A stretch of 64,000 nt of DNA from positions 24,021-88,020 of the forward strand of contig CAZLRH010000002.1 of the NCBI GenBank assembly GCA_964562015.1. The letters are read 5' to 3'. The stretch is from an uncultured Opitutales bacterium (GTDB lineage Bacteria; Verrucomicrobiota; Verrucomicrobiia; Opitutales; JABDGR01). The position numbers and the translations under genes are program-made. Each line of letters opens with the position of its first letter. Position 1 is the stretch's first letter. The notes beneath the pieces are model-generated. The model worked only from the letters and a program-made list of their open reading frames with translations, searched no databases and had not been told where the DNA came from. This document shows, one piece after another, positions 1 to 14,321 of the stretch.

Positions 1-877
1 CCAAAAAGTGCGCGCATTGGGGTTGGAGGCCGCGAAGATGATTGGCCGCACTCCTTCGACCATTAACGCCGGACGAATTCTCCAGCACGGCACACCTGAG
101 TCCGTCAAGCAGTCTGCCATTTTTTTTAGAAATAGTTTGAGACCATACTGTGGACTATTGAATCTGGCACCCCGCGTCGTAGTGACAGTTGCTTCCAAAA
201 ATGAACCGGACCGGCGGGCAGTGCGAGACACCATGTATTGCGCAGGCAGCCGCGATGTATTACTTTTGGAGGCAGGCATGGCGGCCGCCATTGGTGCTGG
301 ATGGAACGTTCAGGAACCGGAATTTCGAGCCAGCTTAGTTTTCGAAAGAGACTGGTTTCAATACAGCGTGATTAGCCTGGCGGGCGTCGTGACTGGTGCG
401 CAAGAAGCCACGGGCTTTGAAAATCTGCTGGAAGATATTGCCATCTATTTGACTGAAACCCAGCAGTTCTGTCCGGCTCCAGACGTCCTTTTGAATCAAG
501 TCCGGCAATCGGGCTTTCGGCAAACGGCGGAGGGTGTGTTGGGATGGGATGCTTGGGTGGCCGATGTGTCACAAGGGCGGGCTCGTCTCGAAAACGTGGA
601 CGCAGAAAGCATGGTGCGTGGGGTCACCCCCGCCCTACGACGATTGGCGTTAAAAATTCAGCAGGCTCACCAAAGGCTAGACCGCGAAAAACAACTACTC
701 GCTGAAGCAGCCCCACTCCATATGTTTGGGGAATATGGAGAGATTCCTGGTTTGGCGGCTTTGCTGGAGCAGACCCTGAACCGCAAGGTGGTGGTCGGCC
801 CAGAACCGCGACAAGCAATGATTCGCGGCGCACTTTCGGTATTGAAAAATCTGGATTGGTGGCTCTCCAATATTTAA
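1..877 (+). CDS. MreB-like actin-family protein, 5'-truncated at window edge. ATP-binding motifs are degenerate, so it is a putative pseudo-ATPase paralog.
   Basis: The 8..877 ORF aligns along its whole length to the MreB C-terminal half: PRVVVTVASKNEPDRRAVR, LLLEAGMAAAIGAGW (MreB: IEEPMAAAIGAGL) and a C-terminal ...IRGALSVL. The phosphate-2 motif VVDIGGGTTEVAVISL is replaced by LVFERDWFQYSVISL. The adenosine motif VLTGGGALL is replaced by LHMFGEYGEIPGL. No in-window start; position 8 is an in-frame GTG. Confidence 0.7.
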   Translation, partial: QKVRALGLEAAKMIGRTPSTINAGRILQHGTPESVKQSAIFFRNSLRPYCGLLNLAPRVVVTVASKNEPDRRAVRDTMYCAGSRDVLLLEAGMAAAIGAGWNVQEPEFRASLVFERDWFQYSVISLAGVVTGAQEATGFENLLEDIAIYLTETQQFCPAPDVLLNQVRQSGFRQTAEGVLGWDAWVADVSQGRARLENVDAESMVRGVTPALRRLALKIQQAHQRLDREKQLLAEAAPLHMFGEYGEIPGLAALLEQTLNRKVVVGPEPRQAMIRGALSVLKNLDWWLSNI

Positions 878-999
878 GGCCGGTTTAATATTCAATCTTA
901 GGCCCGTCCCCACTATAAACATCGCGCCAGCGAGGCATTGACAACCCTGGGCGGGCGCGGTTGCATCGGGGATGGGCGCGTGCCGTGCCCATCTTCCCC

Positions 1000-1761
1000 A
1001 TGATTTGGTACTACGTTGACGAGGGCAAGCAAGCCGGCCCGGTGGATGACGCCCAATTGGAGGCGTTGCGCGTGAGCGGCAAGGTCGGACCGAATACCTA
1101 TGTTTTCCGCGAGGGGATGACGAATTGGCAGCCGTACCACCAGGTCGTGGGCGGTGCCGGCCTCTCGACAACGGCCGGGCCGAACGAGGGGGTGTGCGTG
1201 GAATGCGGCAAGGTTTTCCCGCAGGACCAGTTGATGCAGCACGGCCAGTACTTTGTCTGCGCCCAGTGCAAACCGGTGTTTCTGCAAAAATTGGCGGAGG
1301 GCGCCGCGGTGGGCGGCCAGCCGGTGCACTACGCCGGCTTCTGGATCCGTTTTGTGGCCGCGTTCCTGGATGGCATTTTTTTGTGGATTATCCAGATTCC
1401 CGTGCGTCTCATCGCCGGAGTCGGCATATTGGGCCTGAACGGGCCGCCCCCGACCTCCCCGCCGACGCTGGCCACTTTCGTGCCGATGCTGGGGCTCTTG
1501 GTTGTTGGTTTTTTCATTACGTTTGGCTACGAGATTTTCATGGTGGGCAAATGGGGCGCCACGCTGGGCAAGATGGCGGTCAAGATCAAGGTGGTGACGG
1601 CGGACGGCGGACGCGTGAGTTATGCGCGCGCGACGGGCCGTTGCTTTGCGCGCATCGTCAGCGCCATGATTTGCTACATCGGCTATATCATGGTGGCTTT
1701 TGACGACCAAAAGAAGGCGCTGCATGATATGATGTGCAATACGCGCGTCATCTATAAATAA
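1000..1761 (+). CDS. DUF4339 (GYF-like) + Zn-ribbon + RDD family membrane protein
   Basis: N-terminus MIWYYVDEGKQAGPVDDAQLEALRVSGKVGPNTYVFREGMTNWQPY is the DUF4339 signature. Cys4 ribbon: CVECG...CAQC. C-terminal RDD-type TM domain: YAGFWIRFVAAFLDGIF...AFDDQKKALHDMMCNTRV. ATG at 1000 within the TTG-initiated ORF 961..1761. Confidence 0.75.
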   Translation: MIWYYVDEGKQAGPVDDAQLEALRVSGKVGPNTYVFREGMTNWQPYHQVVGGAGLSTTAGPNEGVCVECGKVFPQDQLMQHGQYFVCAQCKPVFLQKLAEGAAVGGQPVHYAGFWIRFVAAFLDGIFLWIIQIPVRLIAGVGILGLNGPPPTSPPTLATFVPMLGLLVVGFFITFGYEIFMVGKWGATLGKMAVKIKVVTADGGRVSYARATGRCFARIVSAMICYIGYIMVAFDDQKKALHDMMCNTRVIYK

Positions 1762-1770
1762 CCGGCCCCC

Positions 1771-2349
1771 ATGAGCCTGTCGCCCGTCTGCTGTCCCAAG
1801 TGCCGCGCGGTGCTTGCGCCGATTGCCCTCAACCATCCCGAACCAGACCCGTGCCCGGAGTGCGGCACGGAACTCGAAGTGGCGGTGTTTCCGGCGCTGT
1901 TCCGCTCGTTCACGCCGGGCCCGACCGCGGAGCTGGTCACGATGGAAGGCGAGTCCACCTGTTTCTATCATCCGGCGAAGAAGGCGATTCGCCCCTGCGA
2001 CGGCTGCGGGCGGTTCGTGTGCGCGCTGTGCGACTGCGAACTGCACGGGGCGCATTATTGCCCGTCGTGCCTGGAGGTTGGCCGGCGGAAGGGCAAAATC
2101 AAAAGCCTGGAAAACACGCGGCTGCGGTACGACAGCATTGCGCTGGGGCTGGCGGGCTTTCCACTGCTATTCTGGCCTATTTCGGTGGTCACGGCGCCAG
2201 TGGCCCTCTACTACGTATTTCGTTTTTGGAATGCGCCTCGCAGCCTCATCCGCCGCTCACGGTTTCGTTTTCTCCTCGCCGCGCTGCTCGCCAGCCTCGA
2301 GATAGTGGGGTGGTGCAGCGTGGCCTATTTCCTGATTAACGCGCATTGA
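1771..2349 (+). CDS. Zn-ribbon/B-box-like membrane protein (hypothetical)
   Basis: CPKC...CPEC and CFYHPAKKAIRPCDGCGRFVCALCDCELHGAHYCPSC Cys/His clusters, followed by two predicted TM helices. ATG 10 bp after the upstream stop. Confidence 0.55.
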   Translation: MSLSPVCCPKCRAVLAPIALNHPEPDPCPECGTELEVAVFPALFRSFTPGPTAELVTMEGESTCFYHPAKKAIRPCDGCGRFVCALCDCELHGAHYCPSCLEVGRRKGKIKSLENTRLRYDSIALGLAGFPLLFWPISVVTAPVALYYVFRFWNAPRSLIRRSRFRFLLAALLASLEIVGWCSVAYFLINAH

Positions 2350-2359
2350 TTCACTCCCC

Positions 2360-2956
2360 ATGGATAAGGAAAACTATGTGCGGCTGACACGCCCCGCCCA
2401 GCGGACGGCGGGCGGCCTCGTGGCCGTCAGCCAAGTGTACACCAGCCTCTGGCTGGGCTCCGATCACTTGTTGAGCGTCGAGACGAACGGCTTTACGGAA
2501 AACTACAAACGCTTTTATTACCGCGACATTCAGGCCATCGTTTTGCGGAAAACCAAGCGCTGGGTGCTTTGGCTGGCGGGGTGGGCCGTCTTCCTCCTCG
2601 CGGCCGGCGTCAGCGCGTATGCGGCGGAGGAAACCATCGGCTATTTGCTAGCGGCCATTTTTGCCGCCGTCGTGGCCGGTTTTCTGGGGATTGGATACCT
2701 AATAAAAGGCACGTCGACCACGGGCTATTTGCGCACAGCGGTGCAAACGGAGGAGCTGCCCTCGCTCCGGCGGCTGAAGTCGGCCCGCAAGGCGCTGGAC
2801 CGGTTGCGCCCGCTCATCGCCGCCGCGCAAGGCACGCTGCCGCCGGAAGAATTCGCCCAGCGGCTCGCCCTCCTGCAAGGGAACGGGACCTCCGCGATTC
2901 CACTCTCCACGGCTGCTTCCAGTCCGGCCACCTCCGTGCCCCCGGGGAATGTCTGA
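2360..2956 (+). CDS. hypothetical membrane protein
   Basis: 198-aa ORF with a central hydrophobic stretch (WVLWLAGWAVFLLAAGVSAYAA...AVVAGFLGIGYLI). Tightly spaced within the operon. No recognisable domain. Confidence 0.45.
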   Translation: MDKENYVRLTRPAQRTAGGLVAVSQVYTSLWLGSDHLLSVETNGFTENYKRFYYRDIQAIVLRKTKRWVLWLAGWAVFLLAAGVSAYAAEETIGYLLAAIFAAVVAGFLGIGYLIKGTSTTGYLRTAVQTEELPSLRRLKSARKALDRLRPLIAAAQGTLPPEEFAQRLALLQGNGTSAIPLSTAASSPATSVPPGNV

Positions 2957-2980
2957 GGACTTCTGTTTGCGCGCACCGCC

Positions 2981-3292
2981 ATGCCGTCCCTCGCCCAAGT
3001 CCGCTGCTACCACCATGTCGAGCGCGAAGCCGTGGCGCGGTGTCCGGCGTGCGGTCATTGCTACTGCCGCGAATGCATCACCGAGCACGACGACCGCGTC
3101 ATTTGCGCGGCCTGCCTTGCGAAATTGACCCGCGCGGCCCCGCAAAAAAAGATGAACTGGGCCGGCTTGGTTTATCTCGTGGGCGGCGGCGCGGGCCTGG
3201 TGGTCGCGTGGCTTTTCTTTTATTTGCTGGGCCATTACCTGCTCGGATTACCCACGGCGTTCCACGACGGAACGCTGTGGACGACCCACTGA
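2981..3292 (+). CDS. small B-box/Zn-ribbon membrane protein (hypothetical)
   Basis: RCYHHVEREAVARCPACGHCYCRECITEHDDRVICAAC, followed by a TM helix (LVYLVGGGAGLVVAWLFFYLL). Resembles the Cys-rich part of the 1771..2349 product. Confidence 0.5.
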   Translation: MPSLAQVRCYHHVEREAVARCPACGHCYCRECITEHDDRVICAACLAKLTRAAPQKKMNWAGLVYLVGGGAGLVVAWLFFYLLGHYLLGLPTAFHDGTLWTTH

Positions 3293-3302
3293 ACCGCCCG
3301 CC

Positions 3303-4991
3303 ATGAATCCGGCCCACCGCCCGCGCCAAGGCAAGACCGCCCTCGAAATGCTCGAGGAGGCGACGCAACTGCTGCGCACGTGTCCGTGGTCGGTGCTGGC
3401 CAGTTACTACACCGGCACGCTGCCGTTTGCGCTCGGCTTGCTGTATTTTTGGACGGACATGGGGCGCAACCCGTTCGCTGCGCGGCATGTGGTGGAAGGA
3501 GCGCTGGGGATGGCGTTGCTCTTTGCGTGGATGAAAGGCTGGCAGGCGGTGTTCGTACAACAATTGCGCGCCCGCCTGAGCGGAGCCCGCGACGCACCGT
3601 GGGACGGGGGGCGCTGGCGGCGCGTGCTTTTAACCCAATTGCTGCTGCAACCGGCGGGCCTATTCCTCGTCCAAATCACGCGGGTTTTTCTGCTGCCCTA
3701 CCCCTGGGTGAACGCCTTTTTTGAAAACTTGCTCGTCCTCGATGACGGGCGGGAACTGCGCGTGCGCGCCCTGTGCCGGCAAGCGTGGCGCTTGGCTGGG
3801 CTGTGGCCCCGGCAAAACATCCTGGCGATTCTCCTGCTTTGGGCCTTCAATTTTTGCGTCTTCCTCAATTGGGCGTCCGTGTGCATGTTATTGCCTCACT
3901 TGGTGAAAATGCTCACCGGCCTCGAGTCCGTGTTCACCCAAAGCAGCCTGGCGATGGTGAACTCGACCACCTTCATCATCGTGCTGACCCTGACATACCT
4001 CAGCGTAGACCCCATCGCCAAGGGGCTGTACGTGCTGCGTTGCTTTTATGGGGAGTCGCTGCGTTCGGGCGACGACTTGAAGGCGGAATTGAAAAGCGCG
4101 GCCCGCCCGGCGGCAGCCCTCGCGGCCACCCTGGCCCTGGCCGTTTTGGCGTTGAGCGTGCGACCTGGGCACGCGGCCGAAACGCCGACGGCTTCGCCGC
4201 CGGTCGCGCCAGAGAGCGCCGGCAGTGCCGGGCCGCCTTCGCCCGCCGCCACTCCGCAGGCGGTTTCGCCGCCGCAATTGAATCAAGCCATTGGCGAGGT
4301 GATTCACCGGGACAAATTCGTCTGGCGGATGCCGAAGGAAAAATTTGCCGAGGGCGACGAGTCCGAAAGCTGGCTCGCACAATTCTTCCACGAGGTCTAC
4401 AATACCCTGCGGGACTGGTATGATTACCTGCGGGATTTATGGCGCCGTTTCTGGGGCGAGGACGTCGCCAAGCCGTCGGCCCGCTCGCTCAGTTATGGCT
4501 GGATCACGTCGTCGCAGGTTTTGTTAATCAGCCTGATCTGCCTCGTGGGCGCCATCCTGGGCGTGGTACTGTACCGCACGCTGCGCCAGCGGGCCCGGCG
4601 GCGGGCGGTGGTGCAAAGCCAGCCCCTGCCCGCGCAGCCGGACCTGGCCGATGAGAACGTCAGCGCCGACCAGTTGCCCGAGGACGGCTGGACCACGCTC
4701 GCGCGGGAATTGCTGGCCCGCGGGGAATTCCGGCTCGCCCTGCGGGCCTTTTATCTTTCCAGCCTCGCGCATTTGGCGGCCCGGCAACTGATCGCCCTCG
4801 CCAAATTCAAATCCAACCGGGACTACGAGCGCGAATTGCGCCGCCGCGAACACGCCATCCCCGGCCTGCCCGGGCTCTTTGGCGAAAATGTCGTCGCCTT
4901 CGACCGCAGTTGGTACGGCCGCCATGAACTGAACGACGCGCTGGTGCGTCATTTCGCCGCCAACGTGGATAAAATAAAATCTCTCGAGTGA
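3303..4991 (+). CDS. DUF4129-type membrane protein (C-terminal transglutaminase-associated DUF4129-like domain)
   Basis: Multi-TM N-terminal half. C-terminal PEDGWTTLARELLARGEFRLALRAFYLSSLAHLAARQLIALAKFKSNRDYERELRRR fits the DUF4129 pattern. Sits upstream of DUF4350-MoxR-DUF58 as in the conserved cluster. Confidence 0.6.
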   Translation: MNPAHRPRQGKTALEMLEEATQLLRTCPWSVLASYYTGTLPFALGLLYFWTDMGRNPFAARHVVEGALGMALLFAWMKGWQAVFVQQLRARLSGARDAPWDGGRWRRVLLTQLLLQPAGLFLVQITRVFLLPYPWVNAFFENLLVLDDGRELRVRALCRQAWRLAGLWPRQNILAILLLWAFNFCVFLNWASVCMLLPHLVKMLTGLESVFTQSSLAMVNSTTFIIVLTLTYLSVDPIAKGLYVLRCFYGESLRSGDDLKAELKSAARPAAALAATLALAVLALSVRPGHAAETPTASPPVAPESAGSAGPPSPAATPQAVSPPQLNQAIGEVIHRDKFVWRMPKEKFAEGDESESWLAQFFHEVYNTLRDWYDYLRDLWRRFWGEDVAKPSARSLSYGWITSSQVLLISLICLVGAILGVVLYRTLRQRARRRAVVQSQPLPAQPDLADENVSADQLPEDGWTTLARELLARGEFRLALRAFYLSSLAHLAARQLIALAKFKSNRDYERELRRREHAIPGLPGLFGENVVAFDRSWYGRHELNDALVRHFAANVDKIKSLE

Positions 4992-6355
4992 ACACGTTAT
5001 TTTCCAAACCTTGGTTGCTGGGAGCCTGCGCACTGGGGTTTGCGCTCGGGCTGGCCTGGCTGTTGGCCCAGCGCTTCGCCGGAGGCGATGTTTATCCGCC
5101 TTATTCGTCGCTGCGCGCGGATCCGCTGGGCACGATGGCTTTTTACGAGAGCCTGGAACGCCTTCCGCAACTGACGGTGTCGCGGGATTTCACGATCACC
5201 AATGAAATGCCCGCCGATCACCACACCACCTACCTCCATCTGGCGGCTTCTCCCAGCGAGACTTCCCTGCCGCCGGAGGCCTTTCGGGCAGTGGAGGCTT
5301 TTCTCCTGCACGGCGGACGGCTGGTCGTCACCTACTTCCCGGAAGAAACGGAGAGCGATTCCACCCAGCCTTCGGCAAATGATGCCTCGGCAAAAAAGCC
5401 GGCAACGCCCGCGAAATCGTCCGCCAAACCCGCAGAGCCCACCGCGCCAGCAACGACGCCCACGCCCGGTGCAAAACCCGATGAAAAAAAGGCGGTCGCC
5501 GACAAACCGGCGAAGAAGCCGGCCAAACCCAAAGCGAAGCCTGACGCTGATGAAGAAACCGAGCCCGAGATTTCCCTGACCGAGAAATGGGGTTTTCAGA
5601 CGGCGTTCGACGCTTTGCCGGAGTCGGAAACGCATTACGATTCCGTCTTGGTTTTTCGCAAATCTGAACTGGCGCTACCCGCCGCCATGTCCTGGCACAG
5701 CGCCATGACCCTGTCGGAGCTGGATCCCGCGTGGAACGTGATTTACGCCCGCGGCCAAGCACCGGTGCTCGTCGAGCGCGCCTTCGGTGCGGGGTCGGTA
5801 ATTTTAGCCACCGACTCGTATTTCCTCAGCAACGAGGCGCTGTTCAAGGAACCTCATGCCGACCTGCTGGCGTGGATTTTGGGCGACAATCCCAACGTCG
5901 TCTTTGACGAAGCGCATCTGGGCGTGACCCAGACTTCCAACATCGCCGGACTCATCCGCCAATTTCGTCTACACGGGCTGGTCGTTGGCCTGCTGGTACT
6001 GGCCCTTTTGTTCATTTGGAAAAGTGCCGCGAGCCTCGTGCCGCCGCACGCCGTGGAAGCGCCCTCGCCCTATGTGGCGGGCAAGGATGCCGCCGGCGGA
6101 TTTGTGAACTTGCTGCGCCGCCACGTGCCCGGCACTAAGGTGCTGGACTTGTGTGTCACGGAATGGAAAAAGTCCCGCGCCCGCCTGGTGCCCGCGGTCA
6201 AGTTGCAGCAGATTCAAGCCGTGCTCGAGGCCGAGAACACCCGCCCCGCCCGCCAGCGCGATGCCGTCGCGGCGTACAATCAAATTTCCGCCATCCTCCG
6301 CCAGCCCGTACTTTCCGGCGCGGAGACCGCTCCCACCCAACCCCCCGCATCATGA
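4988..6355 (+). CDS. DUF4350 domain protein with Lys/Pro/Ala-rich low-complexity linker
   Basis: GTG start overlapping the upstream stop (GTGA). Signal-like N-terminus. VVFDEAHLGV motif typical of DUF4350. Internal PAKSSAKPAEP...PAKKPAKPKAKPDADEE stretch. Confidence 0.65.
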   Translation: MNTLFSKPWLLGACALGFALGLAWLLAQRFAGGDVYPPYSSLRADPLGTMAFYESLERLPQLTVSRDFTITNEMPADHHTTYLHLAASPSETSLPPEAFRAVEAFLLHGGRLVVTYFPEETESDSTQPSANDASAKKPATPAKSSAKPAEPTAPATTPTPGAKPDEKKAVADKPAKKPAKPKAKPDADEETEPEISLTEKWGFQTAFDALPESETHYDSVLVFRKSELALPAAMSWHSAMTLSELDPAWNVIYARGQAPVLVERAFGAGSVILATDSYFLSNEALFKEPHADLLAWILGDNPNVVFDEAHLGVTQTSNIAGLIRQFRLHGLVVGLLVLALLFIWKSAASLVPPHAVEAPSPYVAGKDAAGGFVNLLRRHVPGTKVLDLCVTEWKKSRARLVPAVKLQQIQAVLEAENTRPARQRDAVAAYNQISAILRQPVLSGAETAPTQPPAS

Positions 6356-7311
6356 ACGCAGACCGTCTCAAGGAAGTCCTGGCCGAAGCCAGGGCTGAAA
6401 CCGCCAAGGTCATCATCGGCCAGCACGAGGTCGTCGACCTGGCGCTCATTGCGATTTTCACGGGCAACCACGCGCTCATCGAGGGCGTGCCCGGCGTCGC
6501 CAAAACGCTGCTCGTGCGCACGCTCGCGCATGTGCTCGGGTGCGAATTCGCGCGCATCCAATTCACGCCCGACCTGATGCCGAGCGACATCACGGGCACC
6601 ACCATTTTCAACATGCAACGCAGTGAATTCACGGTTGCCAAGGGGCCCGTGTTCACGTCGTTTCTGCTGGCGGATGAAATCAACCGCGCGCCCGCGAAAA
6701 CGCAGTCCGCCCTGCTGCAGGCCATGCAGGAACGATGCGTGACCATCGACCGCGAGACGTACCCGCTGCCACCGAATTTCACGGTGTTTGCGACCCAAAA
6801 CCCCATCGAGTACGAGGGGACGTATCCGCTGCCGGAGGCGCAGAAGGACCGCTTCATGCTGAAGATCACGATGCGCGCCCCGGCCCGCGATGAGGAATTC
6901 ATCCTTGCCCAGCGCACGATGACCAAGGAGGCGCCGGAGGCCGTCCTGGCCCAGGGGGCGGTGCGCGCCGTGGTGCAATTGCAAGATTTGGCGGAGTTAC
7001 GCGAGCAACTGGCGGCCATCACCGTGCGCGAGGAATTGCTGGGCTACGTGGTGGACCTCGTGCGGGCGACGCGCCAGCATGAGAGCATCCTCGTCGGCGC
7101 GGGACCGCGCGCCACCCAGGCGCTCATCATGGCCGCCCGCGCGTGCGCCGCGCTGGCCGGGCGGGATTTCGTCACGCCCGACGACATCAAGACCATGGCG
7201 ACACCGGTGCTCGAACACCGCCTCATCCTGCGGCCCGAATTTGAAATCGAGGGCCTTGGGCTCATCGAAGTCATTCAGCAAATCCTCCAACAAATTGCGG
7301 TGCCGCGATGA
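6352..7311 (+). CDS. MoxR-family AAA+ ATPase
   Basis: IIGQHEVVDLALIAIFTGNHALIEGVPGVAKTLLVRTLAHVLG (Walker A), FLLADEINRAPAKTQSALLQAMQE (Walker B/sensor), and a C-terminal MoxR lid. ATG at 6352 overlaps the upstream TGA (ATGA). The ORF-track extension back to 6151 is rejected. Confidence 0.9.
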   Translation: MNADRLKEVLAEARAETAKVIIGQHEVVDLALIAIFTGNHALIEGVPGVAKTLLVRTLAHVLGCEFARIQFTPDLMPSDITGTTIFNMQRSEFTVAKGPVFTSFLLADEINRAPAKTQSALLQAMQERCVTIDRETYPLPPNFTVFATQNPIEYEGTYPLPEAQKDRFMLKITMRAPARDEEFILAQRTMTKEAPEAVLAQGAVRAVVQLQDLAELREQLAAITVREELLGYVVDLVRATRQHESILVGAGPRATQALIMAARACAALAGRDFVTPDDIKTMATPVLEHRLILRPEFEIEGLGLIEVIQQILQQIAVPR

Positions 7312-8642
7312 TCGCGCCCCGCACCAGTCTGCTGTTTTGGGTGGCGCTCGTGGTCCTGCCGCTCGCGGTGGTGCTGGCCGCTTCGCCCGCGGCCGAAACG
7401 GCCGGCTGGGCGCTCGCGGGCGGCCTGGGGCTGGTGGCCCTGCTTGACGCCCTCGGCGCGCGCACGCGGCTGTCCGACCTGCGCGTGGAACTGCCGCCGA
7501 TCGCCCGCATGTCGAAGGATCGGGACGCGAAACTGGAACTGCGCGTGTACAATGCCCGCCGGCGCCCGCTGACGTTGCGTTTTGCGCTCGCCCTGCCGCG
7601 CGAATTCGACTCCGCGCAACCCGACCTCGAAGTCGCCCTGCCGGACAGCGACGAGTGGTCGCGCTTCTCCTGGGCCTGCCGCCCGCGCCGCCGCGGCCGC
7701 TTTCAAATTGATACGGCGTACTTGGAAACGGCGTCACCCCTGGGCCTGTGGAGCGTGCGCCGCGCGGTGCCCGCATCCGCAGAAATCCGGGTGTACCCGA
7801 ATTTGCGCGCGGACCGCCGGAGCCTGGCGGCGTTGTTTTTGCACCGGCCGGCGCCGGGCCTGCGCACCCAACGGCAGGTCGGCAAGGGCCATGAATTTGA
7901 AAAACTGCGCGACTACGTGGCGGGCGATGGTTTTGAAGACGTGCACTGGAAGGCCACCGCGAAGCACGGCCGGCCCATCACCAAAGTATTTCAAGTCGAG
8001 CGCACGCAGGAAGTTTACGTGGTGCTCGATGCCTCGCGCCTCTCCGCCCGGCCGCCCGTGCCCGGCGACCGTTCCGGCGCGACTTGCCTCGAACGCTACG
8101 TCACCGCCGCGCTTGTGCTCGGTCTGGCCGCGGAGCAACAAGGCGATTTATTTGGCCTGCTCACGTTTGCGGACAAGGTGCAGACCTTCGTCCGCGCCAA
8201 GAACGGGCAGGCGCACTACAATGCCTGCCGTGATGCGCTCTACACGATTCAGCCGCAGGGCGTGTCGCCGGATTTTGACGAATTGTGCACGACCATCCGC
8301 CTGCGCCTGCGCCGCCGCACGCTGCTGATTTTCCTCACCTCCCTCGATGATCCCGAGCTGGCGTCAAGCTTTGTGAAAAACATGGACCTGTTGCGCCGCC
8401 AGCATCTCGTGGTGGTGAACATGATTCAGCCGCCGGGCGTGGCCCCCGTCTTTGGCGCGCCGATCGCCTCCGCGGACGAACTTTACCAGCAGCTCGGCGG
8501 CCACCTGCGCTGGCACAACCTGCGCGAATTGGAGAAAGTATTGCAGCGGCGGGGCGTGCAATTTCAATTGCTGAAAAATGAAAACCTCAGCGCGCAGGTG
8601 GTGACGCAATACCTCCGCATCAAACAAAGGCAGTTGTTGTGA
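7308..8642 (+). CDS. DUF58 domain protein (MoxR partner, vWA-like fold)
   Basis: FEKLRDYVAGDGFEDVHWKATAKHGRPITKVFQVERTQEVYVVLDAS is the canonical DUF58 core. N-terminal TM segments. ATGA overlap with moxR. Confidence 0.85.
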   Translation: MIAPRTSLLFWVALVVLPLAVVLAASPAAETAGWALAGGLGLVALLDALGARTRLSDLRVELPPIARMSKDRDAKLELRVYNARRRPLTLRFALALPREFDSAQPDLEVALPDSDEWSRFSWACRPRRRGRFQIDTAYLETASPLGLWSVRRAVPASAEIRVYPNLRADRRSLAALFLHRPAPGLRTQRQVGKGHEFEKLRDYVAGDGFEDVHWKATAKHGRPITKVFQVERTQEVYVVLDASRLSARPPVPGDRSGATCLERYVTAALVLGLAAEQQGDLFGLLTFADKVQTFVRAKNGQAHYNACRDALYTIQPQGVSPDFDELCTTIRLRLRRRTLLIFLTSLDDPELASSFVKNMDLLRRQHLVVVNMIQPPGVAPVFGAPIASADELYQQLGGHLRWHNLRELEKVLQRRGVQFQLLKNENLSAQVVTQYLRIKQRQLL

Positions 8643-9655
8643 TCATCGACCTCCAGCGTTTTTTGCAAACCGAGCGGCCCTACTGGACGGAGCTGGAAAG
8701 CTTCCTCAACCAGTTGGAGGCCGAACCTAACCTCGTGCTTTCGCTCGAGCGTTTGCGGCACTTTCACCATCTCTACGAGCGGACCGCCGCCGACCTGGCG
8801 AAAATCACGACCTTTTCCTCCGAGCCGGAAACCCGCCGGTATTTGGAGAACCTGGTGGCGCGCGCGTATGGCGAAATCCATGAAACCCGCGTGAAAGCTC
8901 GGCGGTTTTCGCCGCTGCAATGGTTTCTCAAGGATTTGCCGCGCACGTTCCGGCGGCACCTGGGCGCGTTTGGGTTGTCCCTCGGCATCACGCTGGCCGG
9001 TTGTGCGTTCGGCACCCTGGCGCTCGCGCTCGATCCGGCGTCGAAGCAGGTGCTCATGCCGTTTGCGGGCTTGCAGGGCGACCCGACCAAGCGCGTGGCC
9101 GAAGAGGAGAAAATGAAACAGGACCGCCTGGAAGGCCACCGGCCGGATTTTTCCGCCGGCCTCATGACGCATAACACGCGGGTCTCCATTTTCACGATGG
9201 CGCTGGGCATGACGTGGGGCGTGGGCACGATTTTCATGCTCTTCTACAATGGCGTTCTGCTCGGCGCGGTCGCCTTCGACTACATCCGGGCCGGACAGAC
9301 GACGTTCCTGCTCGGCTGGCTGCTGCCGCACGGGGTCGTGGAGATTCCTTCCATCCTGATTGCGGGGCAGGCGGGTTTGGTGCTGGCGCGCGCGCTCATC
9401 GGCTGGGGCCGGCAAATACCGCTCACCGCGCGGCTGCGGGAAATCTCGCATGATTTGGTGACGCTGATTTTCGGCGTCGCGGTCCTCCTGGTCTGGGCAG
9501 GTTTTGTGGAATCATTTCTGTCCCAATACCACGAGCCGGTGGTCCCGTACTCCGCGAAAATCGCCTTCGGGTTGGTCGAGTTGTCGTTGCTGACCCTGTT
9601 CCTCGCCAAGTCCGGCACCAAAGCCACGCCGGCCACGGACGGACCGCCCGCATGA
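8639..9655 (+). CDS. SpoIIM-like / DUF95 family membrane protein
   Basis: GTG start in a GTGA overlap. Multi-TM protein. LLPHGVVEIPSILIAGQAGLVLARAL matches the stage II sporulation protein M-like family. Position matches the conserved cluster. Confidence 0.65.
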   Translation: MIIDLQRFLQTERPYWTELESFLNQLEAEPNLVLSLERLRHFHHLYERTAADLAKITTFSSEPETRRYLENLVARAYGEIHETRVKARRFSPLQWFLKDLPRTFRRHLGAFGLSLGITLAGCAFGTLALALDPASKQVLMPFAGLQGDPTKRVAEEEKMKQDRLEGHRPDFSAGLMTHNTRVSIFTMALGMTWGVGTIFMLFYNGVLLGAVAFDYIRAGQTTFLLGWLLPHGVVEIPSILIAGQAGLVLARALIGWGRQIPLTARLREISHDLVTLIFGVAVLLVWAGFVESFLSQYHEPVVPYSAKIAFGLVELSLLTLFLAKSGTKATPATDGPPA

Positions 9656-10431
9656 AAACCAGCGCGCTACTTATCCGCACGCCCGAAGGCATTGTGTTCG
9701 CGCAAGAGCTGGCCGGGCCCATTGCGCGTTTTCTGGCATGGCTGGTGGACCAGGCGTGCATTATCGCCTCAACTCAAGTGCTGGGCGTGGCCTTGCGCGC
9801 CGTCGGCCTGCTCAGTCCGTCGCTGGCGCAGACCTTTTTTATTCTCACTTATTTTATCCTCAGCCTCGGCTACGGAATGGCGTGCGAATGGTGGTGGCGC
9901 GGGCAGACGCTCGGCAAGCGGGTGCTGCGCCTGCGGGTGATGGACGCCGAGGGCCTGCGGCTGCATTTCCCCCAAATTGTCATCCGCAATCTGCTGCGGG
10001 CGGTGGATGTGCTGCCCGTCGCCTATTTTCTCGGCGGCGTGGTGTGCTGGTGCAGCGCCAAGGGCCAGCGCCTGGGCGACATCGCCGCGAACACCATCGT
10101 CGTGCGCCATCCGAAAATCATCGAACCGGACCTCGGCCAATTGCTGGCGGGCAAATACAATTCCCTGCGCCTGCACCCGCACCTGGCGGCGCGCCTGCGC
10201 CAGCGCGTTTCGCCGGGCGAGGCCTCCGTGGCGCTGCAGGCGATTTTTCGGCGCGACGAATTTGAGCCGCTGGCGCGCGTGGAACTTTTTGCCGAGCTGG
10301 CGCAACATTTCCGCGCCAAAGTCGATTTTCCCGCGGAAGTCTGCGCAGGCATCACGGACGAGCAGTACATGCGCAACGTGGTCGACGTGGTGTACCGGCA
10401 GCAGGCCCAACCGCCGATCATGCGCCATTGA
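9652..10431 (+). CDS. RDD family membrane protein
   Basis: WWWRGQTLGKRVLRLRVMDAEGLRLHFPQIVIRNLLRAVDVLP is the classic RDD core. ATGA overlap with the upstream gene. Confidence 0.8.
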   Translation: MKTSALLIRTPEGIVFAQELAGPIARFLAWLVDQACIIASTQVLGVALRAVGLLSPSLAQTFFILTYFILSLGYGMACEWWWRGQTLGKRVLRLRVMDAEGLRLHFPQIVIRNLLRAVDVLPVAYFLGGVVCWCSAKGQRLGDIAANTIVVRHPKIIEPDLGQLLAGKYNSLRLHPHLAARLRQRVSPGEASVALQAIFRRDEFEPLARVELFAELAQHFRAKVDFPAEVCAGITDEQYMRNVVDVVYRQQAQPPIMRH

Positions 10432-12417
10432 TCATTTGACCTCGGCCGGCTGCTCCTCCGCCTCCGCGGCGGCCTCCGCGAGGCCGGCGAGTTTGAAATG
10501 CTGGGCGGTGAAATCGGCGGCCTGCACCACGGCGCGAAACACGCCTTTCAAAATTTCCTGGTCGATTTTGCTCAACTCCTCGGGGCGGATGAATTGGCCG
10601 TTGTCGCCGTGACGGAAGCCCGCGAGCGCCTGATGGTAAAGCGTGGCGCGCGCGGCCTCCGCGGCGTCCTCGAGTGCGGCGCGCCCGGCGGGCAGGCGTT
10701 GCGCGGCCTGCAAAAAGCGCGCGCTCGTGCTGAGCGGGTCCGGGCCGCCTGCCTCGAGGGCGAACACGCGCGCCATGTCGGCCAGCGGTTGGAGGGCGTG
10801 CTGCCGGGTGTCGATGCAGGTCCAGAGCAGGCCCTCCTTGTCCACGACGGCGTTGCGGAAAATGGTCAGCGGCGGCAAATTGGCGAGGGAGTCGTTGGCC
10901 GCGAGCAAAATAAACTGGGCCTGCTCTGCGATGCGCGCGCGAACGTGCCCGCGCAATTGTTCGGCGAGTTCACCCGCACCGGCCACTGCGCGCAGGTCAA
11001 AAAACGGCAAACGGGAAAGGATGTTCTCCTCGACGGGGCTTTCGATCCAGGTTTGAAAAACCCCGCGCCAACTGGAGAGCGACCGGCAGCAACCCGGTTG
11101 CGCGGCGACCATGCCCTCCGGCGAAGGACGAAAACCCACCGCCGCCAGGCCCGCCGTCACCTGCTCGGCCAGCCGCAAAAACCACGCCTGCACCGCGGCT
11201 TCCCGTCCGGGCGGCGGGTCGGCAAAGACGAGCGCGGTTTCCTGGTGCGAGCGCAACAAGCGCTCGCGGCGGCCCTCGGCGCCCACGGCCAGCCAGCAAA
11301 AATTCACGCCCGGCGCGGGCTCGCCGGAGGCGGCCATTTCCGCCGCGGCCAAATCCAGCAGGCGGGCGGTGATCTGGTCGTCCACCTCGCTGATAAAATC
11401 TCCCGCCCAGCTCAAGGGCGCGCGTTCCTGCAGGGCGAACTTGAGCAAATCCTCCGCGCGTTCGCGGAAGGCGCGCAAAGCGGCGGCATCCGGGGCCGTG
11501 CGGATTTCCATGCCCAGGGCAATCGGCAAACGCCCGTACAACACCTGCGTGTCGCGCTCGCTGATCAAGCCCGCCACGGAGGTTGCCGTCGTGCCATCGA
11601 CCGTGACCACCAGATGGCGGACCTTGTGCCGCAGCATTTCCAACACAATCTCGCCGGCGGTCAGGCCCGGCCGGACCGTCCACACCGGCCGGCTCATGAT
11701 GGCTTCGACGGGCGCCAGCAACGGCACTTCGCCGGTGGCCACGCGATGCACCAAATCCGTTTCCGTGATGACGCCGAGCGGGCGGCCGCCCGTGTCCACC
11801 ACCACCAGGGCGTCGCCGCGCGTGCGCAGGCGCTGGGCGGCGTCGCGCACGCTCATGGTCGGCAGGCCCGTGAGGAGGCGCCAGCGAGCGCGCTCCGCCA
11901 GCGGCGCGGTGGCGGAGAGCCAGGTGTCCGCGGCCTCGGTGGTCGAGCCCGCGCGCGAGGGGGCCGTGCCGGCCTGCGGGTCGGGCAATTGAAAATCGGG
12001 CCGGAGGGAAAAATAGGCGGCAAGATAGCGCGATACTTTCGGATATTTGCGGGCCAGCGGCGCAAAATCATCCCACGGCAGCGCGTACAGCAGGGTGTCC
12101 GTCTCGGTGCGAGCGCTTTGCACGAAGGTCTTCTCGCTGAGGAACCAGGAGATGCCGAGCAGGTCGCCCACGCCGCGCATGTCCACGAGTTCCTCGCCGC
12201 GCGGGGTGTTTTGCACGACGCGCACGGTGCCTTGCTGGATGACGTAGAGCCACGGGCCCCGCGGCTCACCCTGGCGGAAAATATATTCTCCCTCCTCGTG
12301 GAATTTCACCCGGCCCAGCGAGGCCAGCCGCTGGACGTCGGCCGGTTCCATGTACTCAAACGGCGGGTGCTCCTTGAGAAAGTCGGCGACCCGCAGGGCG
12401 ATGCTCGAAGTCTTCAT
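10432..12417 (-). CDS. cyclic-nucleotide-binding + tandem CBS + DUF294 (putative nucleotidyltransferase) signalling protein
   Basis: cNMP-binding beta-roll at the N-terminus (GEYIFRQGEPRGPWLYVIQQGTVRV), then CBS pairs and a C-terminal DUF294-like region. Start chosen at MKTSSIAL (12417). An in-frame upstream ATG at 12501 is also possible. Confidence 0.7.
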   Translation of the reverse strand: MKTSSIALRVADFLKEHPPFEYMEPADVQRLASLGRVKFHEEGEYIFRQGEPRGPWLYVIQQGTVRVVQNTPRGEELVDMRGVGDLLGISWFLSEKTFVQSARTETDTLLYALPWDDFAPLARKYPKVSRYLAAYFSLRPDFQLPDPQAGTAPSRAGSTTEAADTWLSATAPLAERARWRLLTGLPTMSVRDAAQRLRTRGDALVVVDTGGRPLGVITETDLVHRVATGEVPLLAPVEAIMSRPVWTVRPGLTAGEIVLEMLRHKVRHLVVTVDGTTATSVAGLISERDTQVLYGRLPIALGMEIRTAPDAAALRAFRERAEDLLKFALQERAPLSWAGDFISEVDDQITARLLDLAAAEMAASGEPAPGVNFCWLAVGAEGRRERLLRSHQETALVFADPPPGREAAVQAWFLRLAEQVTAGLAAVGFRPSPEGMVAAQPGCCRSLSSWRGVFQTWIESPVEENILSRLPFFDLRAVAGAGELAEQLRGHVRARIAEQAQFILLAANDSLANLPPLTIFRNAVVDKEGLLWTCIDTRQHALQPLADMARVFALEAGGPDPLSTSARFLQAAQRLPAGRAALEDAAEAARATLYHQALAGFRHGDNGQFIRPEELSKIDQEILKGVFRAVVQAADFTAQHFKLAGLAEAAAEAEEQPAEVK

Positions 12418-12544
12418 ACCGTGCGCGGTGGGGAAGGGGCCGCGGATTGTTTCGTCAGCCTGCGAATCCCCTAGGTTACACCGGCGCGCGTCCTGCGCCA
12501 AGCAAATCCCGAAGCAAAATGGAACCCTTTGCCCCCGCCGAAAA

Positions 12545-13471
12545 TCAGCGCGGGTCCGCCACCGCCATGGCCGAGCCCATCTGTGCGTACAACTCGCGGC
12601 CCTGGCGTGTGTTTTCGACCAAATCCTCCGCGAGCCGCACGCGCCCGGGCTCGAACAGCGTCACGGTGGCCGAACCGCCAAAGGCGAAATACCCCTTTTC
12701 GTCGCCCCGCGCCACACGGCGGCCAACGGCATAGGTCTGGTGAATGCTGCCGACATTCGTGGCGCCTACTTCGAGCAATAGAACGCGGCCCGCGCGCGGA
12801 GATTCAAACTCGGTGATGCGCCGCCGGTTTTCCCACAGGTAGGCCAGCCGCCGCCGCAGAGCGATCGGGTTGACGCTCCACAACGTCCCGCGCACCAAGC
12901 GAGCCGGGCCGGGCGTGCCGTCCGTCGGAAAATGAAACCGGTGATAATCCACCGGACACAGGCGCGACAAAATGAGCGTGCCCTGCGCATACCGCCGCGC
13001 CAGTTCGGCATCCCCGAGCAGCGCGCGGAGATTCCAGCGCTGGCCCTTGATGAAGACTCCGTCCACCTTGGAGACATCCGGGAACCCAAGGTGCCGCCCG
13101 TCCGCGCCGAAGACCATCGTCTCCGGTCCGCCGGCCAACGGGCGCACTCCCGCCTTCAGGCGCCGCACGAAGAAATCGTTAAAGCTGCGAAAATTCTCCA
13201 CCGGCTCGGCAAATTCGGATTCGTCCAGCGCATAGTGCTGGAGAAAGGGACGGATGCGCAGGCGGCTGACGCTCCGGCGCATGCGCCAGCCGTACCAGTG
13301 CGCAAACCAGCCGCGCCGTGCCACCGCCCAGGCCGTCAGGCGACCCTGGCCCGATTCATAGGCCCACCGCAGAAAACTCTCGCCGTAAACCTGCTCCACC
13401 TCGACCCGGCCGGTGTGCCGGTTGAAGTACTCAACCGGCTGGCCGCGCGCGGCTTTGACGCTGTCAAACAT
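12545..13471 (-). CDS. psd: phosphatidylserine decarboxylase proenzyme
   Basis: FNDFFVRRLKAGVRP, LSRLCPVDYHRFHFP, and a FGGS-type cleavage motif near the C-terminus. Start at MFDSVK (13471). The ORF extends in frame to 13507. Confidence 0.8.
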   Translation of the reverse strand: MFDSVKAARGQPVEYFNRHTGRVEVEQVYGESFLRWAYESGQGRLTAWAVARRGWFAHWYGWRMRRSVSRLRIRPFLQHYALDESEFAEPVENFRSFNDFFVRRLKAGVRPLAGGPETMVFGADGRHLGFPDVSKVDGVFIKGQRWNLRALLGDAELARRYAQGTLILSRLCPVDYHRFHFPTDGTPGPARLVRGTLWSVNPIALRRRLAYLWENRRRITEFESPRAGRVLLLEVGATNVGSIHQTYAVGRRVARGDEKGYFAFGGSATVTLFEPGRVRLAEDLVENTRQGRELYAQMGSAMAVADPR

Positions 13472-13709
13472 ACGCCCCACACAACCGGATGCCCCCGCGC
13501 TCCTCAAGCGCGAACCGCGATGTGCTTAGACACCTGCGGACGCCCGCATCGCCTCGATGAATTGGAATTCAGTGATTCTTCCTTGGCAAAATAAAGGCAA
13601 AGCCTCATTTCCAAATCAGGCGAGACTATCTATGCTGTTGGTTAGCTTTTGCAGGACTGTCATTTTGCTTTCAGAATTTTGCATTCTACATTCTCGATTC
13701 TACCTTCTC

Positions 13710-14321
13710 ATGTTGTGGCAAATTCTCCTTTTCGACGGTTTTGACGAACTCGACGCGGTCGCGCCGTTCGAGGTGCTGCAGATGGCGGCTGCGCGCGTGC
13801 CGGAGTGGCGGGTGGAACTCGTGGCCGTGGAGGGCCCGCGTGAAATCACCGCCAACCACGGGCTGCGCTTGCACGCCACCGGCAAGCTGGGGCCGACGAG
13901 CGGACTGGGCCGCCCGGATGTCATCATCGTGCCAGGCGGCGGATGGGTGGACCGCAAGGCCCACGGCGCACGCGCCGAAGTCACGCGCGGATTAATTCCC
14001 AAAGCCCTAGGTGAGTTGAGCCGCTCGGGTACCCTCGTCTGCTCCGTCTGCACGGGGGCGATGCTCGTGGCCGCGGCGGGATTGCTGCGCAATCGGCCGG
14101 CGACGACCCATCACGCCGCGCTCGAGGATTTGCGCGCGGCCGGGGCGAAAATTATTTCGGCGCGCGTGGTGGACGCCGGCGACCTGGTGACCGCGGGCGG
14201 CGTCACCTCCGGCCTCGACCTGGCCCTGCATCTGGTGGGTCGCTTCAGTTCCCCCGCCCTCGCCCGCCAGCTCGAAGGCACGCTCGAATACGAGCAGCGC
14301 GAGGAAGCGTGGAAGGGCTAG
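13710..14321 (+). CDS. DJ-1/PfpI (ThiJ) family protein
   Basis: ILLFDGFDELDAVAPFEVL, VIIVPGGGW, nucleophile elbow CSVCTGAMLVAAAGLL. ATG at 13710 directly after a CT-rich leader. Confidence 0.8.
   Translation: MLWQILLFDGFDELDAVAPFEVLQMAAARVPEWRVELVAVEGPREITANHGLRLHATGKLGPTSGLGRPDVIIVPGGGWVDRKAHGARAEVTRGLIPKALGELSRSGTLVCSVCTGAMLVAAAGLLRNRPATTHHAALEDLRAAGAKIISARVVDAGDLVTAGGVTSGLDLALHLVGRFSSPALARQLEGTLEYEQREEAWKG

Follow-up and report, generated by a model that had tools for sequence, protein, structure and literature searches.

The first 10,431 nucleotides (nt) of the stretch of DNA analysed here, a window of 64,000 nt from the genome of an uncultured Opitutales bacterium (contig CAZLRH010000002.1, positions 24,021 to 88,020), carry eleven genes, which we call g1 to g11 (Table 1). 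Ten of them, g2 to g11, form an array that is conserved in gene order across at least five phyla. On balance we consider it probable that this array, at 1000-10431, is an operon for an inner-membrane complex built around a MoxR AAA+ ATPase (g8) and a membrane-anchored partner, the DUF58 protein g9, which bears a vWA-like domain. The first gene, g1, is a degenerate paralog of MreB and lies outside the conserved system.

The array and its junctions

An original prediction made from this DNA described eleven co-directional genes on the + strand, and the coordinates of the open reading frames (ORFs) bear this out. Its domain labels are also real, since MreB_Mbl in g1, GYF_2 and RDD in g2, DUF4350 in g7, AAA_3 and AAA_lid_2 in g8, DUF58 in g9, SpoIIM in g10 and RDD in g11 all exceed the Pfam gathering scores. 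The spacing needs correction. Of the six final junctions described as 4-bp overlaps, the five from g6/g7 to g10/g11 are so and g5/g6 is a gap, and the largest distance is that between g1 and g2, outside the stated range of 0-85 bp. This is the sole sizeable gap within the array. The ATG chosen for g2 is the start in the public gene call and matches the conserved M-x-WYY N-terminus of the family; a spacing of 83 nt would need a TTG start at 961.

Table 1. Genes and features at the start of the window, with the junction to the following gene
Feature	Position	Strand	Description	Junction with next gene
g1	1-877 (ORF 2-877; 3' 291 codons)	+	Degenerate MreB paralog, outside the conserved system; 5' end cut by window start	122-nt gap; g2 start is ATG at 1000
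Candidate promoter TTGACA-N17-TTGCAT	938-966	+	In the g1-g2 gap; loose variant of TTGC-N17-TGGCA
g2	1000-1761	+	GYF_2, CxxC...CxxC zinc ribbon and RDD membrane domain; ATG start; first gene of the conserved array	9 nt
g3	1771-2349	+	Zinc ribbon at the N-terminus, then a Cys/His cluster like that of a B-box, with transmembrane helices at the C-terminus	10 nt
g4	2360-2956	+	PH-like beta-sandwich split by a transmembrane hairpin, then conserved helix and Pro-containing tail; marker gene of the array	24 nt
g5	2981-3292	+	Cys/His zinc module resembling B-box and RING fingers, followed by a transmembrane segment and a C-terminal motif that is conserved	10-nt gap
g6	3303-4991	+	Conserved polytopic membrane domain at the N-terminus, matching no known family; variable linker rich in Pro; one transmembrane helix; DUF4129 on the cytoplasmic side	4-nt ATGA/GTGA overlap
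g7	4988-6355	+	DUF4350 between N- and C-terminal transmembrane helices, basic cytoplasmic tail; sole large predicted periplasmic domain	4-nt ATGA/GTGA overlap
g8	6352-7311	+	MoxR-type AAA+ ATPase	4-nt ATGA/GTGA overlap
g9	7308-8642	+	DUF58: N-terminal transmembrane hairpin and cytoplasmic vWA-like domain	4-nt ATGA/GTGA overlap
g10	8639-9655	+	SpoIIM-family polytopic membrane protein, soluble N-terminal domain of about 110 amino acids (aa)	4-nt ATGA/GTGA overlap
g11	9652-10431	+	RDD membrane protein, C-terminal domain of about 110 aa with no family assigned; last gene of the array

A scan for promoters and terminators gave no terminator at any junction, and its consensus matches, all inside genes, are uninformative. 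Rfam had no match anywhere in the whole window, and with the array proteins NCBIfam gave nothing beyond generic AAA+ matches for g8. By eye, no Shine-Dalgarno-like sequence precedes any of the ten starts of g2-g11, and the starts of g2-g5 follow C-rich tracts (cccc or cgcc before the ATG).

A simple hydropathy scan finds hydrophobic transmembrane segments in nine of the ten products of g2-g11 and none in g1. The single weak segment flagged in g8 (residues 20-38) was not taken as a membrane helix. According to the positive-inside rule, the periplasmic parts of the system would be the DUF4350 domain of g7 and the linker of g6, with the other soluble domains almost all cytoplasmic.

Conservation of the gene order

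In order to follow the array in other genomes, 80 loci were fetched from species-representative genomes with the g4 alignment (A1), and their six-frame ORFs were searched with the window proteins and then with profiles made from the first matches. The order g2-g3-g4-g5-g6-g7-g8-g9-g10-g11 is complete and on one strand in 52 of the 80 loci, and about 20 further loci are cut by contig ends or masked stretches. Going by contig titles, the loci belong mostly to Verrucomicrobiota and also to Acidobacteriota, Nitrospirota, Desulfobacterota and Myxococcota, a few short contigs bearing implausible-looking taxon labels. The commonest spacing is a 4-nt overlap at each junction from g5/g6 to g10/g11 and 10 nt or less at the first three junctions. 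An order and tight junctions that return in 52 complete arrays go far beyond what chance would produce. Across the orthologs of g2-g11, conservation is strong in the ATPase motifs, the MIDAS-like motif (after the metal ion-dependent adhesion site of vWA domains), the RDD residues and the Cys/His ligands.

The genes g2-g5 co-occur with g6-g11 in the same order, and therefore belong with the MoxR module. Thus, of the five genes by which the original prediction had extended the module upstream, g2-g5 are retained, being found with order and strand unchanged in every fetched locus with sufficient flank, and g1 has to be dropped. The outcome named there as fatal, upstream genes that never accompany the module, was not what the 80 loci gave for g2-g5. 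The broader idea of an uncharacterised membrane-associated system gains support from this conserved array of membrane proteins. In the literature searched we found no description of the ten-gene form or of the g3, g4 and g5 families, and the present analysis defines these three as unannotated, abundant families.

The upstream genes g2-g5

The product of g2 combines GYF_2 (DUF4339; 57.3 bits, cutoff 25.8) with RDD (99.1 bits). The ribbon cysteines are kept in 76 of 77 sequences, and residues R117, D124 and D243 of the RDD domain are near-invariant. Through this shared domain g2 and g11 are paralogs. An extra g2-like (GYF/RDD) paralog stands directly upstream of g2 in six loci (L006, L015, L019, L035, L039 and L077).

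No Pfam or NCBIfam family matches g3, g4 or g5. For g3 there are 785 homologs, and the column identity of their alignment (A4) is 68%. In it C8, C11, C28 and C31 are invariant or nearly so, and C64, H67, C76, C79, C84, C87, C89, H95, C97 and C100 constitute ten invariant Cys/His positions. The zf-B_box model matches g3 below threshold (15.6 bits against a cutoff of 24.1, E 0.019), as do the RING and ANCHR B-box models g3 and g5, and the AlphaFold2 model of g3 is poor (predicted local distance difference test score 59.5); the B-box call is accordingly one of sequence pattern. The reciprocal match of their Cys/His modules makes g3 and g5 paralogs. The latter is present in every locus of the synteny set and ends in a conserved motif that reads SFHEGTLW in the orthologs and AFHDGTLW in the window.

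The g4 protein has the seven-stranded beta-sandwich with C-terminal helix cap that is expected of a PH-like fold. More than 500 homologs were found by a word-indexed search, and an exhaustive profile search gave 2,770 representatives at 50% identity. A long form of about 340-370 aa, in which four extra transmembrane helices replace the Pro-containing tail, is seen in L024, L025, L067 and L072, and about half of the top 150 representatives of the family fall in this length class. It occurs in Desulfobacterota, Nitrospirota and Haliangiales. We considered binding of the g2 GYF domain to the conserved C-terminal PPx-hydrophobic tail of g4 (A1). Against this idea, the long g4 form lacks the tail, yet a GYF-bearing g2 seems to persist in at least one locus of this kind (L072), judged by a match to its start motif, and the idea is kept solely as a lineage-specific speculation.

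Taken jointly, g2, g3 and g5 hold roughly five predicted Zn sites whose ligands are invariant. Maturation of metal sites is a common role of MoxR/vWA pairs, as in NorQD, CoxDEF, CbbQO and BchID, and the Zn sites invite the thought that the complex might be a chaperone for inserting a metal centre or cofactor into a membrane enzyme, like NorQ/NorD or CoxD/E/F, with the Zn proteins as donors or clients. We regard this as very unlikely, given that there is no client enzyme in or beside the operon, that the flanks are not conserved and that the Cys/His clusters resemble structural zinc ribbons or B-box-like fingers.

The MoxR half, g6-g11

The DUF4129 model scores below its cutoff on g6 of the window (20.7 against 24.8 bits), yet it matches 18 of 19 orthologs; the alignment of the family (A3) has 48% column identity. 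In g7 the DUF4350 domain (51.4 bits) is enclosed by hydrophobic segments at residues 9-27 and 326-344, and a D-E-x-H motif is invariant in the alignment (A5). DUF4350 has been described as a family of anchored, extracytoplasmic GldG-like domains (Makarova 2015, PMC5898192). Profile searches against the sequences of the PDB found no solved relatives of g6, g7 or g9.

The ATPase g8 matches AAA_3 with 211.7 bits (cutoff 27) and AAA_lid_2 with 84.2 bits (cutoff 22.7), its closest solved chain being 2r44 (E 8e-81). The Walker A motif GxPGxAKT (EGVPGVAKT in the window) and the DE of Walker B (LLADE) are kept in 62-63 of 63 orthologs, and g8 is predicted to be an active ATPase. Its putative partner g9 matches DUF58 (64.3 bits, cutoff 23.4) behind two hydrophobic segments at residues 7-25 and 32-50. 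The motif D241-A-S243-R-L-S246 (DxSxxS) hardly varies among 57 orthologs, with T286 and D347/D348 also conserved. The SpoIIM match of g10 reaches 126 bits (cutoff 26.9), with DUF8413 recorded for the N-terminus, and g11 matches RDD (63.8 bits) with R26, D33, D119 and D143 invariant.

A secondary Pfam match of g8 is bpMoxR (49 bits), and MoxR-vWA ternary conflict systems reportedly exist, said to have been described by Kaur and colleagues in 2020, so that an anti-phage or conflict role of this type was weighed. Nevertheless, none of the ten proteins matched the PADLOC defence-system models and Pfam gave no beta-propeller or effector domain. Furthermore, the gene order is rigid across phyla and the flanks show no signs of mobile elements, unlike defence islands. 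An anti-phage system is thus the least probable of the readings, with very little to be said for it.

The MreB-like neighbour g1

On the public contig that contains the window, the full g1 ORF (L001, 1803-2810) codes for 335 aa and starts 131 nt ahead of the window, 106 nt after a GH78 alpha-L-rhamnosidase gene, so that g1 sits between this gene and g2. The part inside the window matches MreB_Mbl with 87.3 bits (cutoff 27) over positions 38-323 of the 327 of the profile. An alignment with real MreBs (A2) reveals ALGSDHV in place of the phosphate-1 motif DLGTANT, FERDWFQ in place of phosphate-2 DIGGGTT and GEYGE in place of the adenosine motif GGGA. The other MreB blocks are retained, together with a C-terminus (VLKNLDWWLSNI) nearly identical to that of P0002, an MreB of verrucomicrobial type. 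With all three nucleotide-binding motifs lost, "pseudo-MreB" is a fair name for g1. It resembles canonical MreB in its full-length actin-fold homology and differs from it in the lost motifs, in having neither mreC nor mreD nor PBP2 beside it, in the lack of orthologs and in its atypical codon composition. The best match, P0002, is located in a normal operon of mreB, mreC, an unannotated ORF of 177 aa and PBP2.

A search of 5.8 billion proteins returned no g1 ortholog, the matches being g1 itself and ordinary MreBs at no more than 32% identity. The neighbourhood search proposed with the original prediction, for an MreB paralog beside the module, gave no co-occurrence: within 10 kb, all 80 loci are free of MreB-like ORFs. 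Nor is any gene family conserved upstream of g2, the largest cluster there covering 5 of 66 loci. The guanine-cytosine (GC) content of g1 is 0.546 and that of its third codon positions (GC3) 0.545, which means no third-position bias, against a GC3 of 0.72-0.83 in the rhamnosidase gene and g2-g11. Either g1 was acquired recently or it evolves under very different constraints.

The original prediction treated g1 as a cytoskeletal-family component. In its fullest form this would be an eleven-gene system with the pseudo-MreB as a cytoskeletal scaffold for zinc-ribbon membrane anchors and the MoxR module. The position of g1 directly upstream on the same strand agrees with it, and so does the intact ORF of 335 codons, which despite about 70% divergence from real MreBs argues for continued selection. 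The missing orthologs, the empty count in the 80 loci, the unconserved upstream flank, the outlying GC3, the ordinary mreB-mreC-PBP2 setting of the closest relative and the gap before g2 with its possible promoter all oppose it, and we consider the eleven-gene system highly improbable. Because g1 is without orthologs, without hits in the 80 loci, a compositional outlier and separated by a gap, the unit is of ten genes and not eleven. The intact long ORF makes it probable that g1 is still a gene, a lineage-specific orphan that adjoins the operon and is not a component of it. The link of the MoxR array to the cytoskeleton is thereby removed as misleading.

The motif upstream of g2 and the flanking genes

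A bipartite motif, TTGC-N17-TGGCA, was found in 28 of 58 loci, some 62 nt ahead of the g2 start codon, compared with 0.9% of control windows (random 200-nt windows from the same loci). It lies about 60-90 nt upstream of g2 (L003-L082), usually after a T-rich run, and as a conserved upstream motif it marks g2 as the head of the unit. A separate g2 promoter in this genome is plausible, going by the candidate listed in Table 1. In a subset of loci the second box looks like a sigma-54 element (-24/-12: TGGCAT-N5-CTGCAT). A sigma-54 reading of the motif fits only about 10 of the 28 instances, which makes it no more than a possibility.

On the other side of the array, a convergent gene of 689 aa (10432-12501, -) carries cNMP-binding, two CBS and DUF294 nucleotidyltransferase domains; its stop abuts that of g11 and leaves no space for a terminator between them. 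It is followed at 12545-14321 by a phosphatidylserine decarboxylase gene (-) and a gene of the DJ-1/PfpI family (+), both of ordinary housekeeping appearance. A convergent gene of about 800 aa lies just downstream of g11 in 17 of 52 loci (for example L057, 18108-20585, -). Its product has an N-terminal GYF_2, a transmembrane segment and a C-terminal domain like DUF1080 (3-keto-disaccharide hydrolase), and this gene is absent from the window.

Comparison with known neighbourhoods

The four families MoxR, DUF58, SpoIIM and RDD, adjacent in the window as g8-g11, also make up a four-gene core on Paracoccus and Rhizobium plasmids and in Nocardia; in Alphaproteobacteria and Actinobacteria the core occurs without g2-g5. 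The window has the six-gene form, in which g6 (DUF4129) and g7 (DUF4350) precede the core, and this form had been taken in the original prediction to recur in many phyla. What holds is that the four-gene core is found in both Alphaproteobacteria and Actinobacteria, and that DUF4129 and DUF4350 are shown beside it only in Actinobacteria. The alphaproteobacterial plasmid cluster (Paracoccus aminovorans, Rhizobium spp.) reads DUF805-hyp-hyp-MoxR-DUF58-SpoIIM-RDD, where hyp is a hypothetical protein. It shares with the window the core in the same order, overlapping junctions and two membrane-protein genes at the places of g6 and g7. However, a DUF805 membrane protein leads instead of g2-g5, and the two proteins upstream of MoxR match neither Pfam DUF4129 and DUF4350 nor the g6 and g7 profiles. 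When these profiles were compared by hhalign with the proteins encoded at those two places in Paracoccus and Nocardia, no significant match resulted. A six-gene module in Alphaproteobacteria is therefore not established, the position-equivalent Paracoccus proteins having no detectable homology to g6 and g7.

In mycobacteria the Rv3689-Rv3695 cluster (moxR2 region) contains the same five families as g7-g11, namely Rv3691 (DUF4350), Rv3692 (MoxR), Rv3693 (DUF58), Rv3694c (SpoIIM-like) and Rv3695 (RDD), and the Mycobacterium chelonae orthologs of Rv3689 and Rv3691-Rv3695 are co-regulated (PMC8191103). Furthermore, Rv3694c and Rv3695 co-purify with the divisome protein Rv0954 (PMC8093794). A Nocardia locus has DUF4129, MoxR, DUF58, RDD and SpoIIM, and in it no counterparts of g2-g5 were seen. 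In these Actinobacteria one RDD or SpoIIM gene is on the opposite strand (Rv3694c in M. tuberculosis, RDD in Nocardia), whereas the window is fully co-directional.

The MoxR gene followed by DUF58 also heads the inner-membrane-protein operons known as Bat (Bacteroides aerotolerance), such as Borrelia BB0170-BB0176. These continue with BatA and BatB (vWA), BatC (TPR) and BatD; no VWA_2, TPR or BatD was found in g2-g11, which is thus not a Bat operon. An unrelated Bat-like set was seen in locus L002 only. As to SpoIIM itself, the Bacillus subtilis protein is a membrane scaffold that recruits cell-wall hydrolases (PMC5898192) within the SpoIID-SpoIIM-SpoIIP engulfment complex. It belongs to the same Pfam family as g10; the host of the window is by contrast a non-sporulating diderm, g10 has an extra N-terminal domain, and the genes scanned included no member of the SpoIID or SpoIIP families, the genome beyond the window being unsearched. 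A divergent pair of RDD and SpoIIM genes without MoxR or DUF58 is present on a Bernardetia plasmid (L085, 8061-10839), the SpoIIM protein having 617 aa and being fused to something, which suggests that RDD-SpoIIM is an older unit.

In archaea, arCOG01314 (DUF4350) is co-encoded with the COG0714 MoxR/GvpN ATPase and a vWA-type protein, a set predicted to form a membrane-associated complex for secretion or remodelling (Makarova, Galperin, Koonin 2015; PMC5898192). The same paper points to SpoIIM homologs whose neighbours are a vWA protein and a COG0714 ATPase. The archaeal neighbourhood differs from the window in that its vWA protein is predicted to be secreted, that it encodes Ig-like or S-layer proteins and that it lacks SpoIIM, RDD, DUF4129 and g2-g5. 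On this model the array could be an apparatus for secretion or surface assembly, with the GldG-like DUF4350 as its extracytoplasmic platform and the ATPase energising export or assembly (cf. Makarova et al. 2015). That prediction, the large domain of g7 between its two transmembrane helices and the nine membrane proteins among ten products are consistent with such a role. Nevertheless, the operon offers no candidate cargo, outer-membrane component, S-layer or Ig-domain protein, its DUF58 is predicted to be cytoplasmic behind an N-terminal transmembrane hairpin and not secreted, and most of the protein mass is cytoplasmic. We consider a secretion apparatus unlikely.

For the RDD domain, a conserved binding site inside the membrane, facing the cytoplasm, and frequent fusions to VanZ and signalling domains have been reported (Burroughs et al. 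2025, PMC12419801). The system might accordingly be one for membrane sensing and signalling, in which a lipid or lipid-linked precursor in the cytoplasmic leaflet is bound by the two RDD domains, the signal passes through the GYF, B-box and PH-like modules, and MoxR/DUF58 acts as a switch to reset the complex. The invariant polar residues of the RDD domains and the presence of PH-like, GYF and B-box domains, all typical adaptor modules, speak for it. On the other hand, no kinase, cyclase, transcription factor or other recognisable output domain is found in the operon, and the statement on RDD in PMC12419801 cites work in preparation. Such a module is in our judgement distinctly unlikely, and it overlaps the remodelling complex that we favour instead of opposing it.

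Proposed function

The array g2-g11 is a widespread ten-gene variant of the MoxR/DUF58 neighbourhood that has already been noted, its four-gene core being already in the literature. Other MoxR/vWA pairs are RavA-ViaA, CbbQ-CbbO, NorQ-NorD and magnesium chelatase. By analogy with such pairs, we propose that a cytoplasmic MoxR hexamer (g8) would use ATP and, acting through DUF58 (g9), would assemble the membrane proteins g6, g7, g10, g2 and g11 or change their conformation. In this mechanism g2-g5 may supply the cytoplasmic interaction modules, these being the GYF domain, the zinc ribbon, two B-box-like fingers and the split PH-like domain. Most simply, g2-g5 would be clade-specific adaptor or regulatory subunits that take the place, for example, of the DUF805 protein encoded there in Alphaproteobacteria. 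An action of the output on the cell envelope is probable, because the DUF4350 domain and the g6 linker are the only parts predicted to face the periplasm. We infer the remodelling, the topology and the envelope target from the analogy with other MoxR/vWA pairs and from the mycobacterial co-purification.

Several points weigh against the ten-gene complex. The copy of the upstream motif in the window is weak and degenerate and was not flagged by the promoter scan, and read-through from g1 into g2-g11 is possible. In at least three loci (L034 after 14351, L047 after 13957, L082 after 9204) the array halts after g7 or g8 and unrelated genes follow, so that the two halves can be separable; the breaks are either true operon splits or misassemblies of metagenome-assembled genomes. 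The genes beyond them code for a xylose-isomerase-like TIM barrel, an AbiEii toxin, RNase D and AraA. Moreover, g9 does not have the canonical MIDAS (DxSxS...T...D), its motif being MIDAS-like with non-canonical spacing, which makes metal-dependent ligand binding uncertain. The topologies come from a crude hydropathy scan, and the ATP-driven mechanism is drawn from other MoxR/vWA pairs by analogy.

A bolder version of the proposal, which we put forward tentatively and hold to be rather doubtful, is that of an unrecognised ten-subunit envelope machine in five phyla. In it the MoxR/DUF58 motor would drive an assembly of SpoIIM, RDD, DUF4129 and DUF4350 with g3, g4 and g5 as adaptors, the targets would be cell-wall or lipid-linked precursors, and TTGC-N17-TGGCA would be a dedicated promoter of an alternative sigma factor or of sigma-54 type.

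Few bacterial ATPase systems without clear functions are as widespread as the MoxR/vWA modules, and the SpoIIM-RDD-DUF58-MoxR neighbourhood extends to Mycobacterium tuberculosis. The rigid ten-gene form gives a precise list of parts and a marker gene, g4, for genetics in culturable Verrucomicrobia and Acidobacteria. If the complex does act on the envelope, this would provide a role for DUF58, DUF4129, DUF4350, RDD and non-sporulation SpoIIM at once.

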